Shown one piece after another: positions 13,849 to 19,777 of a stretch of DNA of 64,000 nucleotides. This DNA comes from a plasmid, in assembly GCF_055900595.2 (NCBI RefSeq), contig NZ_JBVWEU010000003.1. The stretch is one strand, 5' to 3'. Position 1 is the stretch's first letter, and every line of letters starts with the position of its first letter. A program made the position numbers and the translations under genes. The notes below the pieces were generated by a model. That model searched no databases and was not told the DNA's origin. It saw nothing but the letters and a program-made list of their open reading frames with translations.

Positions 13849-14436
13849 ATGAAATATACACCGGTTGGCGTTGATATCGCAAAACATGTCATTCAGGTTC
13901 ACTTCATCAATGAGCACACAGGGGAAGTGGTGGATAAGCAGGTTCGTCGTCAGGATTTTCTGGCGTATTTCAGTAACCGCGAACCCTGCCTGATTGGCAT
14001 GGAAGCTTGTGGAGGCTCCCTGCACTGGGCGCGTGAATTAACAAAGCAGGGACACAAAGTCCGATTGTTGCAGGCTCGCTTCGTTAAAGCATTCGTCATG
14101 GGCAATAAGAATGACGTGATGGATGCGCGAGCTATCTGGATGGCGGTACAGCAGCCAGGCAAAGAAATCGCCGTCAAAACAGAAGAACAACAGTCAATAC
14201 TGGTTCTGCACCGTTCCCGCAGACAACTGGTGAAGTTCCGGACCGCGCAAATTAATGCCCTGCACGGGAGGTTACTGGAGTTTGGTGAAACCATTTCTTT
14301 TTCAGTCTGTATCGCAGAACTGCGTAATAATCTGAAGGAGAACTCTTCCTGGCTGGTTGCTCTCTGTGATTTCATTTTTGCACGTTTCAGGCAGTGCTGT
14401 ATTCGTCTCTGGATACAGATCCGATCATCTTCCTGA
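13849..14436 (+). pseudogene. IS110-family transposase, truncated or frameshifted
   Basis: The first ~150 aa (MKYTPVGVDIAKHVIQVHF…GMEACGGSLHWAREL…) match the IS110-family DEDD N-terminal domain; the ORF stops at 195 aa with a non-conserved tail. Confidence 0.55.
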
Positions 14437-14551: not shown

Positions 14552-15352
14552 ATGCTTTCTTCCCGGTATGTTATAGTTATTAAGATACTTTTGTCCCTGT
14601 TCTGTTCCGGAGTGAACATGATTTTTGTCTGTTCTGTTGTACTGGCTGGCAGGGCATTCACCCTGCAGTTTGCCGGGAAAATGCTGTCCCTTTCTGCAGG
14701 AGATGTGCTTCTGATTGATGATGCTGATCGTGAGGATTTTCAGCCTCATGCTGAGCATATCACTGAGGTGAGGCTGGATGAAAATATCATCCGCAGATAT
14801 CTGGAGAGTTGTGGCGGCAACCGGGAGGCCGACAACACGGTTTCTTCTGGTTTCATCAGAGTGGCCTTTGCTCATCCTGCGTTGTTGCGTGACGTTATGC
14901 ATCATCTGAATTCGGGAGGATTTGTTCATCCCGGATTTTCCGAGCAGATGTTTTTTTCCTGCATTGCTGTCTTTGCATCAAAAAAAGGCTTTCTTCCTTT
15001 GTTGCTGGGCGGAATGCTTTCTGTGGCCGGGAGAGTGAGGCATATCATCTGTACTGACCTTTCACGCCAGTGGAAGCTGCGGGATGTCAGCAGTCGTTTG
15101 TATATGAGTGAAAGTCAGCTGAAAAAGAAACTGAAGGAAGAAGGATGTTCGTTCACCGGAGTGCTTCTGGATGTGAGAATGGGCTATGCACGCCGTCTGT
15201 TACAGGCCCGTCTGCCGGTCAACAGGGTGGCCGCGCAGTGTGGTTATGTAAGCACATCTTATTTTATCTGCGTGTTCAGGGAATGTTTTGGCGTCACGCC
15301 TCACAGGATGCTGGCGCTTCAGGAGCACGGGCAGCATAAAAGTGAATGCTGA
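14552..15352 (+). CDS. AraC-family transcriptional regulator
   Basis: C-terminal double HTH (RDVSSRLYMSESQLKKKLKEEG…VAAQCGYVSTSYFICVFRECFGVTP); the true start may be the internal MIFVC. Confidence 0.7.
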   Translation: MLSSRYVIVIKILLSLFCSGVNMIFVCSVVLAGRAFTLQFAGKMLSLSAGDVLLIDDADREDFQPHAEHITEVRLDENIIRRYLESCGGNREADNTVSSGFIRVAFAHPALLRDVMHHLNSGGFVHPGFSEQMFFSCIAVFASKKGFLPLLLGGMLSVAGRVRHIICTDLSRQWKLRDVSSRLYMSESQLKKKLKEEGCSFTGVLLDVRMGYARRLLQARLPVNRVAAQCGYVSTSYFICVFRECFGVTPHRMLALQEHGQHKSEC

Positions 15353-15934: not shown

Positions 15935-16015
15935 ATATTGAAGATAACAAGATAACAAGATAACAAGATAACAAGATAACAAGATAACAAGGTGTTATCT
16001 TGTTATCTCAAGGTG
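15935..16015. repeat. Iteron array: tandem 8-bp AAGATAAC units (about 6-7 copies) plus inverted GGTGTTATCTTGTTATC copies, downstream of the par operon
   Basis: Direct read of the sequence; a related array lies upstream at 17065-17120. Confidence 0.6.
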
Positions 16016-16318
16016 TTATCTTTGTTTTACTTCTGCTATCAATCGTGATACCTCTGTTTTTGATAGTGTTTTAAGTGCTTCTACCGCCGCCCTGACAACA
16101 TCAGAACGATTCACTCTGCCTTTACCTGAAACCATCTCAGCCGTTATAAGGGCATCAATGTCTTTTAGGTTTTCTTCAAAAAAAGAAATACTCACTGGTT
16201 TTGCTTTGCTTACAACCGATGATTTATCTGATGACTTTTTGGTATTATCAAGGCCAGCCGTGCCACCGTTAATAAATGCTGCCTCGTCACGAGGTGAAGT
16301 GTTTGCTCTATTTCTCAC
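16016..16318 (-). CDS. Small partition/centromere-binding protein (ParG/ParB-like, tentative)
   Basis: 100 aa, overlaps the parA stop; basic N-terminus; non-ATG (GTG) start per ORF track. Confidence 0.45.
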   Translation of the reverse strand: MRNRANTSPRDEAAFINGGTAGLDNTKKSSDKSSVVSKAKPVSISFFEENLKDIDALITAEMVSGKGRVNRSDVVRAAVEALKTLSKTEVSRLIAEVKQR

Positions 16319-16941
16319 AGAATAACCTCTTTCACTAACGCTTCGATTTCTTGCTGGGCTTTATCATTTTGCGTTTCAAAAATTGTCATTGATTCGGCCC
16401 AAGCATCTCGATGTGCTTTACGATCACATACCCGGGAGTTTGCCAGATGCATTTCAGGGTAATCCTTAAGTACTTCAGCTGCCTCATTGGCTTCATTAAC
16501 AAACATATTTGTGGGCGTCATGTTTAAAACGAGATATCCCCGAACATCCCCATTAAAATCTTTTGCTGCTGTAAAAACGGAGCATGTATGAGGCACAACA
16601 TCCAGGTCCATCTGAGATGGGCGCAAAGGAGAAATGAATACATCTGCGGCCATCAATCCACTACGCATTTCTGCGCTATCACGGCCAGCACAGTCTGCAA
16701 TAACAAAATCATAGGATTTTTCGTGTTCCTTTAACATGGCTTTGATGTTACCTGTCGCGCCTGTAACCGGAATATGAGGGAGATCTTCAGGGCGATTGTT
16801 GTACCAGGTTAATACTGATTTCTGGTCATCTGCGTCGACAATAATCACTCTATTGCCTAGTGACATCAGATACGCAGCTATAGATACCGCCAGTGTACTT
16901 TTACCTACCCCACCCTTTTGACTACCTAATACTATTATCAT
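16315..16941 (-). CDS. parA: ParA-family partition ATPase (type Ib)
   Basis: Deviant Walker A motif KGGVGKST at the N-terminus; 208 aa. Confidence 0.9.
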   Translation of the reverse strand: MIIVLGSQKGGVGKSTLAVSIAAYLMSLGNRVIIVDADDQKSVLTWYNNRPEDLPHIPVTGATGNIKAMLKEHEKSYDFVIADCAGRDSAEMRSGLMAADVFISPLRPSQMDLDVVPHTCSVFTAAKDFNGDVRGYLVLNMTPTNMFVNEANEAAEVLKDYPEMHLANSRVCDRKAHRDAWAESMTIFETQNDKAQQEIEALVKEVIL

Positions 16942-16949
16942 TATAGCCT

Positions 16950-17120
16950 CATATTAAGTTGTTAAGTTAACAACTTAATATTGCCATCTGAACGCGAATC
17001 ATGCAATTATTTTTGTTATATTAACAACTTAACAAGTTATTAAGTATTTGATTTATAGATTAATTAATATAACAAGATAACAAGACAACAAGATAACAAG
17101 ATAACAAGATAACAATATTA
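16950..17120. promoter_or_regulatory. par promoter/operator region with palindromes (AAGTTGTTAAGTTAACAACTTAA) and upstream AAGATAAC iterons
   Basis: Read from sequence immediately upstream of the parA start. Confidence 0.5.
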
Positions 17121-17136
17121 TGGGTGGATTACATAT

Positions 17137-18408
17137 TCATAACTGGGCTACTGGCAAATCTGTCCATCTGGTGGTATACGCAGGAGAAAGCATTTCCCGT
17201 TTCATTTGCCACTCAGGGGCGGTTCCTCGCCCCGCAAACCACACTTTCCCTTTTCCCGACTGGTTCAGTTCATCGAGTGTTTTCATTAACTTTTCACTGT
17301 TTTTACGGGGCTGGATTTCATCAAATAATCCCGGCTGCGCTATACCCGATGGTGTGAAATCAGCCAGCATGACTCCTGCCTTCATATAGCGGTACCCTTC
17401 ACGCCAGACATGGTTTAAGGCCCTGCATGCGGCGGCAATAATGTCCCGGCTGTCCTGTGTGGGCAATGAAAGCTTTTCCACAGCGGCATTGCTGTAACAG
17501 GGTTCTTTTACTGCAAAGGGGGATGTCCGTACAAATGTCGTCACCTGCCGGCAATACTGACGTTCCCCACGTAGTTTCTCTGCGGCCCGCTCTGCATACT
17601 GAACAACAGCCTGGTGCATGGCATCTTTGTCTGTGATTCGTTCACCAAAACTGCGACTACAGACAATCTGCTGTTTTGCCGGTGGTGCTTCTTCCAGGGA
17701 TATGCAGGACTCGCCGTTGAGTTCGCGTACCGTACGCTCAAGAATGACGCTGAAGTTTTTCCGGATGAATGCCGTGTTAGCCTGCGCCAGCTGCAGTGCT
17801 GTGTTAATACCCAGCGCATTCAGCTTTTCCGTCAGTCTGCGTCCTACTCCCCAGACCTCACCAACTGGCTGCAGCCCCAGTAGCTTCAAGATCCGATTAC
17901 GGTTTTCTGCCGTCAGCGCGACCACACCGGAAAACTGTGGCCATTGCTTTGTTGCCCACTGTGCACTTTTAGCCAGCGTTTTTGTAGGCGCAATGCCCAC
18001 CCCCATGGTGAGTCCTGTCCAGCTCTTTACCTGTTCCCTGAGCTGATGACCAAAAACCTCCGGAGAGATGCAATGATTTATCCCCCGCAAATCAATGAAC
18101 ATTTCATCAATTGAGTAGGGCTCAACTGCGGGAGAAAGCGACTCCAGAACAGCCATAACCCGTTGGCTCATGCTGTGGTACAGCGCATAATTGCTGGAAA
18201 ATACATGTATTTTCTTCTCCAGGCGCATCTGTCTCACCTGAAACCAGGGCTGCCCCATTCTGATGCCAAGGGCTTTTGCCTCCGGGCTGCGCGCGATCAC
18301 ACAGCCATCGTTATTGCTGAGTACGATGACCGGTTCGTTGCGAAGGTCCGGGCGGAAAACTTTTTCACATGAGGCGTAGAAACTGTTGATATCAGCCAGT
18401 GCAAACAT
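17137..18408 (-). CDS. impB: Y-family error-prone DNA polymerase subunit (UmuC/MucB/ImpB)
   Basis: 423 aa starting MFALADINSFYASCE…, the conserved Y-family polymerase N-terminus. Confidence 0.9.
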   Translation of the reverse strand: MFALADINSFYASCEKVFRPDLRNEPVIVLSNNDGCVIARSPEAKALGIRMGQPWFQVRQMRLEKKIHVFSSNYALYHSMSQRVMAVLESLSPAVEPYSIDEMFIDLRGINHCISPEVFGHQLREQVKSWTGLTMGVGIAPTKTLAKSAQWATKQWPQFSGVVALTAENRNRILKLLGLQPVGEVWGVGRRLTEKLNALGINTALQLAQANTAFIRKNFSVILERTVRELNGESCISLEEAPPAKQQIVCSRSFGERITDKDAMHQAVVQYAERAAEKLRGERQYCRQVTTFVRTSPFAVKEPCYSNAAVEKLSLPTQDSRDIIAAACRALNHVWREGYRYMKAGVMLADFTPSGIAQPGLFDEIQPRKNSEKLMKTLDELNQSGKGKVWFAGRGTAPEWQMKREMLSPAYTTRWTDLPVAQL

Positions 18409-18845
18409 CAGCGTAACTCCCGCGTCCTGTGTATCACGTGAGTGACAACACCAAAAATACAGATGTTTTCCGGATACAGTGTGCGGAACTCCGGGCTGTC
18501 TGAAACCGGCTCCAGTGCCGGGCGTGGGCGCAACAGCAGTCGTTTGACGGTGAACTCACCGTCGATCTCAGCGATAACGATGTCCCCGTGTTGTGGTTTT
18601 TCGGCCCTGTCCACTACCAGCAGATCACCATTCTGCACGCCAGCCTGGTTCATCGATTCACCGCTGGCGCGCAGAAAGAAGGTGGCTGCAGGTCTGCTGA
18701 TGCAATAGCTGTTCAGATCCAGTTCCTGCTCAGCATAATCAGTGGCAGGCGAAGGAAAACCGGCCTGGCAACGATCGGCAAACAACGGTCGCACGTAACT
18801 GTCATCGCCTGAAGGGTCAGCCGGACGGTGATAAACGGTACTCAT
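18408..18845 (-). CDS. impA: UmuD/MucA/ImpA-like LexA-type self-cleaving protein
   Basis: 145 aa with S24 peptidase-like signatures (GESMNQAG… and a downstream Lys); overlaps the impB start. Confidence 0.85.
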   Translation of the reverse strand: MSTVYHRPADPSGDDSYVRPLFADRCQAGFPSPATDYAEQELDLNSYCISRPAATFFLRASGESMNQAGVQNGDLLVVDRAEKPQHGDIVIAEIDGEFTVKRLLLRPRPALEPVSDSPEFRTLYPENICIFGVVTHVIHRTRELR

Positions 18846-19090
18846 GCTGCAGGCAGCCAGCTGTCGTCCTGCCAGATTTCTTCCAGCAGAGACAGGATAC
18901 GTTCTTTATCCTTGTCGTTGCGGGCTCCTGTGACAGATACAGACGGGGCGCTGCCCTGGTCTATACGCAGCCAGATTTCCGGGTAGTGTGGTTTCAGACG
19001 TTGTTCGATTTCATTCTGTAGCGCCTGAAGTGTGCCTGATTTGAGGTTTTTTGTGCTCTGGCGGTCGAAAAGAATTTCAATGCGGATCAT
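18842..19090 (-). CDS. impC: DinI-like protein (ImpC)
   Basis: MIRIEILFDRQ…LLEEIWQDDSW resembles DinI; start taken at the internal ATG; the longer ORF to 19150 begins with GTG. Confidence 0.65.
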   Translation of the reverse strand: MIRIEILFDRQSTKNLKSGTLQALQNEIEQRLKPHYPEIWLRIDQGSAPSVSVTGARNDKDKERILSLLEEIWQDDSWLPAA

Positions 19091-19113
19091 GTTCTCATCT
19101 CCCTTTTCTTTTG

Positions 19114-19129
19114 CTGTATGTATATACAG
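19114..19129. promoter_or_regulatory. LexA (SOS) box CTGTATGTATATACAG
   Basis: Perfect CTGT-N8-ACAG palindrome immediately upstream of impC. Confidence 0.7.
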
Positions 19130-19777
19130 TATTCTAATAACTGAATCCACACACAGTCAAATGTCATTATTGTGACTAAAAAACGCTCAATTCTCTGAGG
19201 GTGTGGCTGTATGCCTGCTGTGGACTGCTGTGTCCAGCTTATCCACAGCATTTTGCGCACGGTTCTGTGAATAAAATACCTGGTTACCCAGGCCGTGCCG
19301 GCACGTTAACCGGGCTGCATCCAATGCAAGTGTGTCGCTGTCGCCGGCATCCTCACCAGGTCACTCAGCAGTCAGGGAGAAAAATGGCGGATGAAGTATG
19401 ACGGAGACGGTCGGGCAAGTGCCCGTTTCTTTTCCGACAAAGGATGTCGCCGTGCTCCTCTTTTTACTGCGCCGGCTGACGCGGCGCGGCATAAACGCTG
19501 CCTGTGGTCAGTGTCCCGCGTCCGGCGGGCACGGGACGGGCGCTTTTACCGCTCCCGGCTGGCGTCGGTGACAGTGTACGCCAGCCCGTCGCCCTTTTCT
19601 GATGAACGCCCTTCAAGCCGCTTTCGCGGCATAGCCTTGCCGTCAGAAAGACGACGGCTGCGGTATTCCACGGTCGGCCTGACCCGTTACCGGACGCGGT
19701 GAACAGCCCACAGGCAGCGGGGAACGGGCACCACAGGGGTGCCCTCCCGGTGCCTTCTGTAAGAGAAGGAGGCTTTT

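Follow-up and report, generated by a model that had tools for sequence, protein, structure and literature searches.

A type Ib parABS cassette with octamer arrays on both sides of parAB, closely matching the partition system of pESBL-EA11

Genes and repeat arrays at the locus

The octamer AAGATAAC occurs 15 times in the 64-kb stretch of plasmid DNA analysed here (the window), against an expectation of 0.99, and none of 100 shuffles reached 15 copies. Twelve of the 15 copies sit in two clusters (15941-16022 and 17074-17113), between which lie two overlapping minus-strand open reading frames, one encoding a ParA-type protein and the other its partner. With both genes on the minus strand, 17068-17116 is the promoter-side, or 5', array and 15941-16022 the 3' array. 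The locus comprises the following genes and repeat blocks (window coordinates; strand given for genes).

15941-15991: 3' parS array, direct block; six perfect 8-bp units, reading AAGATAAC on the plus strand and CTTGTTAT on the gene strand
15993-16022: 3' parS array, inverted block; three units in the opposite orientation
16016-16318, minus strand: parB; 100-aa centromere-binding protein with a GTG start
16315-16941, minus strand: parA; 208-aa type Ib Walker-type partition ATPase with Pfam, NCBIfam and ParF matches
17068-17116: 5' promoter-side parS array; six direct 8-bp units

Tandem Repeats Finder reported period-8 arrays at 15941-15991 (6.4 copies, 100% match) and 17069-17115 (5.9 copies, 94% match), as well as two inverted copies at 15993-16008. 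The unit is 8 bp long, and the published repeat GATAACAA is the identical repeat in another phase. Units of the 3' direct block have the same orientation as those of the 5' array, of which four are perfect and two carry one mismatch (ACAACAAG and the terminal ATAACAAT). The inverted units lie at 15994-16001, 16002-16009 (one mismatch) and 16015-16022, the innermost of them overlapping the parB stop codon (16016-16018). In total, six direct units are present 5' of parA, and six direct and three inverted units 3' of parB. The original prediction, made from the sequence of this region, was of a partition operon of parA and a small partner with partner-binding repeat arrays on both sides, and this holds. 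It had also placed embedded inverted copies in both clusters, which is correct for the 3' array and incorrect for the 5' array, where all units are direct; the inverted octamer-like sequences on the promoter side belong to a separate promoter region (16951-17044) outside that array. The 16-mer TTGTTATCTTGTTATC, corresponding to two units, formed no clusters in the 64 kb outside the two par arrays when up to three mismatches were allowed, and a search across the window for further octamer clusters or copies of the promoter palindrome described below, as a sign of a ParB regulon, found none.

ParA carries the deviant Walker A motif GSQKGGVGKST at residues 6-16 and lacks an N-terminal helix-turn-helix (HTH) DNA-binding domain, making it a small Walker-type ParA (208 aa) of the type Ib kind. 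It matches the Pfam families MipZ, AAA_31 and CbiA, and the NCBIfam model ParA_partition with an E-value of 3e-45 and 154 bits, a score under the 180-bit equivalog cut-off of that model. Its closest solved relative is TP228 ParF (206 aa), which aligns end to end (E 4e-14). The parA stop and the parB GTG start overlap as GTGA, and the two genes are translationally coupled.

ParB gave nothing meaningful in Pfam, NCBIfam, PDB sequence or profile searches. Its family comprises 164 homologues, nearly all of about 100 aa, from enterobacterial plasmids, whose alignment displays an invariant N-terminal tail (MRNR...E..FI.GG.A), a variable linker, an invariant KAKPVS.S segment and then two conserved helices. 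The protein is predicted to consist of a conserved disordered N-terminal tail and a ribbon-helix-helix (RHH) domain like that of ParG and omega, followed by an extra C-terminal helix. By analogy, the system would carry the fold signature of the type Ib class that includes ParF/ParG and delta/omega, and would work as they do.

In the window as in pESBL, a Y-family polymerase operon and the gene of an AraC-type regulator adjoin the cassette. Directly 5' of the cassette, on the minus strand at 17137-19150, is an SOS-mutagenesis operon of the impCAB or mucAB type, encoding a DinI-like protein, a umuD/impA-like S24 peptidase and the Y-family polymerase, the polymerase gene ending about 20 bp outside the 5' array. 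On the opposite flank of the cassette, the open reading frame at 14552-15352 occupies the position of a gene annotated as 'helix-turn-helix domain-containing protein' in the matching IncK2/Z plasmid, and that at 13849-14436 resembles a truncated IS110-family transposase.

Relation to pESBL-EA11 and other type Ib systems

The locus is very probably a type Ib parABS cassette of IncI-complex plasmids, essentially identical to the system of pESBL-EA11 (NC_018659). This identification is based on the homology of the arrays and on the near-identity of both proteins, since ParB (Hp7, O3K_25817, WP_001245884.1) is identical at 100 of 100 residues and ParA at 207 of 208 (G131E). The two loci are also alike in the octamer, the two-array layout, the palindrome in the promoter region and the neighbouring Y-family polymerase operon, and the window has the pESBL-type arrays of GATAACAA octamers up- and downstream of parAB, with both direct and inverted units. 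The arrays differ in unit number only, the 5' array having six units in the window and seven in pESBL, and the 3' array six direct and three inverted units compared with about ten and five; the promoter region differs by a few substitutions. pESBL-EA11 is an IncI plasmid of E. coli O104:H4, whereas the backbone of the window is closest to an IncK2/Z plasmid. In pESBL-EA11 (150-175 of its locus), beside blaTEM-1, the 3' array borders at its outer end on a sequence recognisable as a Tn3-family terminal inverted repeat (GGGGTCTGACGCTCAGTGGAACG...), apparently the result of transposon insertion into or beside the margin of this centromere array.

The type Ib partition locus of the IncI plasmid pESBL was characterised by Poidevin et al. 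(Genes 2020, PMC7602700). In a Tn-seq stability screen, insertion mutants were lost over about 1 kb of the par region; the par locus stabilised an unstable mini-F, and GFP-ParB formed foci only when pESBL was present. Deletion of par caused no visible destabilisation of pESBL, an effect masked by conjugative re-transfer and addiction systems. In electrophoretic mobility shift assays (EMSA), ParB gave seven complexes on a probe with seven direct repeats (7-DR) and eight on a probe with 4+4 opposed repeats (8-BS), with comparable affinity for the two, and it bound octamer arrays cooperatively and in either orientation, with roughly one unit per bound species. ParB and the octamers are reported to be without sequence homology to known ParB or parS (PMC7602700). 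The original prediction would have failed if only one array were bound by the partition protein, a question that these shift assays already answer in part. The window thus adds no new kind of system, the existence of this one, the specificity of its protein for DNA and its two arrays having been published before.

Two arrays flanking one ParA system had also been thought uncommon, a view contradicted by the paper on pESBL, which describes them in that plasmid and also in pB171 and pSM19035 (PMC7602700). Constructs of pB171 par2 carry parC1 and parC2 on either side of parAB (PMC4270457), and this type Ib system (parC1-parA-parB-parC2) has, as here, a small ParA and a small ParB between two arrays of short direct repeats, a likeness that concerns layout only. 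Its upstream array is involved in transcription regulation and has putative centromere activity (PMC7602700). In the delta/omega system of pSM19035, an RHH protein binds 7-bp units, direct or inverted, in several arrays that are also operators, and the flexible N-terminal tail of omega activates its ParA partner (PMC3074162, PMC5016525). It differs from the present system in belonging to a Firmicute plasmid, in having separately transcribed genes and in its 7-bp rather than 8-bp units, and no sequence similarity was detectable between the two. ParG of TP228 is likewise an RHH protein, whose disordered tail stimulates the ParF ATPase; TP228 also has a separate operator, OF, between the centromere and the genes (PMC5016525), which resembles the placing of the palindrome between the 5' array and parA in the window.

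Distribution and variation of the cassette

The region matches 1425 PLSDB plasmid records, including 693 from Klebsiella, 438 from Escherichia, 164 from Salmonella and 57 from Shigella, and the top matches, at 100% identity, are plasmids of E. coli, for example NZ_CP019253 (IncK2/Z). The cassette is found on IncI, IncK2/Z, IncFII and IncFIA replicons. Both arrays are kept, in the same 8-bp register and orientation, in cassettes of 86-89% DNA identity (the diverged cassettes compared were from Klebsiella IncFIA/IncFII plasmids and an S. diarizonae IncFII plasmid), with 5' arrays of 6-12 units and 3' arrays of 4-14. The 5' array of the Klebsiella plasmids is long and canonical (6-12 units), and in Klebsiella and Enterobacter homologues the inverted block is absent and the corresponding position holds 10-14 direct units. 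In Megablast alignments with the Klebsiella plasmids, the homologous segment opens with base 1 of the 3' array (query 92) and closes just short of the 5' array (query 1208) or at its outer edge (1266-1269), limits which indicate a mobile module that at its fullest consists of array, parB, parA and array.

Among 23 full-length near-identical plasmids, 22 have a length that differs from that of the window by a whole number of 8-bp units (-1 to +12). NZ_CP019253 has ten units in the 3' direct block compared with six here, and all four of its extra units are in that block. The six 3' units of the window are fewer than in most of its 100%-identical relatives, which have ten or more. This variation in array length could be due to real slippage or to collapse of repeats in short-read assemblies.

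In the S. diarizonae IncFII plasmid NZ_CP022137 (1600-1670 of its locus, minus strand), the 5' array consists of six CTTAATAT units, while the 3' array keeps CTTGTTAT and the predicted DNA-binding region of ParB is identical to that of the window. Either ParB accepts AA in place of GT at positions 4-5 of the unit, or the two arrays have different functions. As the 5' units have drifted and the DNA-binding region of ParB has not changed, the 5' array may be a poorer ParB site in some plasmids.

The pESI-like Salmonella Infantis megaplasmid NZ_OW849855 (2300-3600 of its locus) carries an orphan parB (about 94% DNA identity) followed on its 3' side by only two octamers, and transposase-like ORF fragments in the position of parA. 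This looks like the remnant of a decayed cassette on plasmids of roughly 300 kb. A reading of the pESI hits as parB paired with a different parA was rejected, parA having been replaced by IS remnants and parB being an orphan.

In the Klebsiella IncFIA/IncFII plasmids, the cassette has the gene of a site-specific integrase on one side and that of a RepB-family initiator on the other. Its 5' array is about 0.7 kb from the initiator gene, a proximity that could mislead toward an interpretation of the arrays as replication iterons, that is, Rep-binding repeats of an origin, as they had been called in the original prediction. Such an interpretation would also agree with the tandem direct repeats and the AT-rich intergenic region. 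Iterons are typically about 17-22 bp long and stand beside a cognate rep gene and an origin, whereas the present units are 8 bp long, neither the window nor pESBL has a rep gene next to them, and the arrays co-occur with parAB on IncI, IncK2/Z, IncFII and IncFIA plasmids. Together with the experimental binding of ParB to the octamers (PMC7602700), these observations effectively refute the iteron interpretation already and leave it extremely improbable; the arrays are instead 8-bp centromere repeats of the parS/parC type.

Promoter region and roles of the arrays

The interval between the 5' array and parA contains the following features.

16947-16950, minus strand: Shine-Dalgarno sequence GAGG, 5 nt before the parA ATG; invariant across a six-locus alignment
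16951-16981: perfect 31-bp palindrome ATATTAAGTTGTTAA-N-TTAACAACTTAATAT, with two converging octamer-like half-sites GTTGTTAA
16978-17006, minus strand: candidate parAB promoter; -35 TTGCAT (17006-17001), 17-nt spacer, extended -10 TG-n-CAATAT (16986-16978)
17013-17044: second octamer-like cluster, TTGTTATA TTAACAAC TTAACAAG TTATTAAG, of putative function

The Shine-Dalgarno sequence and the palindrome lie within some 44 bp adjoining the parA start codon on its 5' side that are nearly unchanged in all six loci aligned, compared with a mean column identity of 65% elsewhere. Cassettes that differ by about 13% in the rest of their sequence have almost the same palindrome, which covers the -10 element and the predicted start point and is an operator candidate. 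Upstream, an invariant ATTGC lies 17-18 nt from a conserved TGGCAATAT, separated from it by a spacer that varies in sequence and is constant in length. The candidate promoter was placed on this basis, both hexamer regions being conserved and the spacer constant in length only, and TTGCAT-17-TGnCAATAT is thus, judging from the sequence, the probable parAB promoter, its direction being taken from the position of parA. This site was absent from the list of a consensus promoter scanner. The scanner promoter TTGTTA-18-AATAAT (17035-17006) was rejected, as neither of its hexamers is conserved in Klebsiella, and a reading of the conserved blocks in the plus-strand direction, as the promoter TTGCCA-18-AATTAT of the scanner, would also be possible. 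The second octamer-like cluster is related to the palindrome, lies 54 bp from it and is upstream of the candidate -35, so that the two bracket the candidate promoter. This arrangement is suggestive of autoregulation by ParB through the promoter repeats. No mention of the palindrome or of the cluster at 17013-17044 was found in the parts of the pESBL paper (PMC7602700) that were consulted.

At the other end of the operon, RNA folding predicts that the inverted and direct blocks of the 3' array form a long mRNA hairpin (-30.1 kcal/mol, z -6.9), and a terminator-like site there consists of a hairpin followed by a U-rich run, the stem having only four G-C pairs among 18. The inverted block may double as the terminator of the parAB transcript. 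It has to be asked whether it is mainly an intrinsic terminator, with surrounding repeats that slip in number and are not needed for partition, as the hairpin with its U-rich tail, the stability of the RNA fold and the changes of copy number in 8-bp steps might suggest. This is very unlikely given the paucity of G-C pairs in the stem and the situation in Klebsiella and Enterobacter, where the inverted block is missing and yet 10-14 direct units stand in its place; the Klebsiella homologues also indicate that the inverted block is not essential to the family. ParB moreover binds opposed repeats in EMSA (PMC7602700), and the roles of terminator and centromere are compatible with each other.

Separate operator and centromere roles for the two arrays are a reasonable idea. 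In its strict form, the 3' array would be the only working centromere, and the 5' array and palindrome a purely autoregulatory operator unable to support partition alone. This agrees with the position of the 5' array, about 60 bp upstream of the candidate -35 and beside the conserved octamer-like sites that bracket the promoter, with the S. diarizonae plasmid, in which 5' units have become CTTAATAT while the 3' units are canonical and the RHH region of ParB is unchanged, and with the sole mapped difference in copy number (window compared with NZ_CP019253), which is wholly in the 3' direct block. The authors of the pESBL study, too, write of the upstream array that its role 'remains to be determined' (PMC7602700). 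Against it, the probe of seven direct repeats, which is the form of the 5' array, was bound as well as the opposed-repeat probe, the upstream array of pB171 has putative centromere activity besides its regulatory role (both PMC7602700), and the 5' array of the Klebsiella plasmids is long and canonical. So strict a division of labour is unlikely.

The preferred reading, in which both arrays serve partition, follows the precedents of TP228 ParF/ParG, pSM19035 delta/omega and pB171 par2, together with the anatomy of the window locus. ParB would dimerise through its RHH domain, and the dimers would coat both arrays to form partition complexes, the coated arrays being the centromeres of the plasmid. 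The conserved arginine-rich N-terminal tail of ParB would stimulate nucleoid-bound ParA-ATP, and by analogy the resulting gradient of ParA would space the plasmid copies and so provide every daughter cell with one. Probably in concert with the palindrome over the -10 element, the promoter-side array would allow ParB to repress parAB, for which parC1 of pB171 and OF of TP228 offer precedents, and the inverted part of the 3' array may also terminate the operon transcript.

It is possible, if doubtful, that the locus has an undescribed three-part cis architecture, in which two ParB arrays of the same orientation end a mobile par module, and the palindrome and its related site bracket the promoter. 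In that case ParB, by itself or together with ParA, would have a second mode of binding, to the converging GTTGTTAA half-sites of the palindrome. The 5' array would load ParB cooperatively onto the operator, or pair with the 3' array and loop out the operon, and array length, changing in steps of 8 bp, would tune expression together with centromere strength or incompatibility.

To the published picture of this system, the present analysis adds the retention of both arrays in diverged relatives, the 8-bp steps in array length, the predicted fold of ParB and the invariant promoter palindrome. Very common resistance plasmids of E. coli, Klebsiella, Salmonella and Shigella are maintained in their hosts by this cassette, whose biology is relevant to strategies of plasmid curing and incompatibility.
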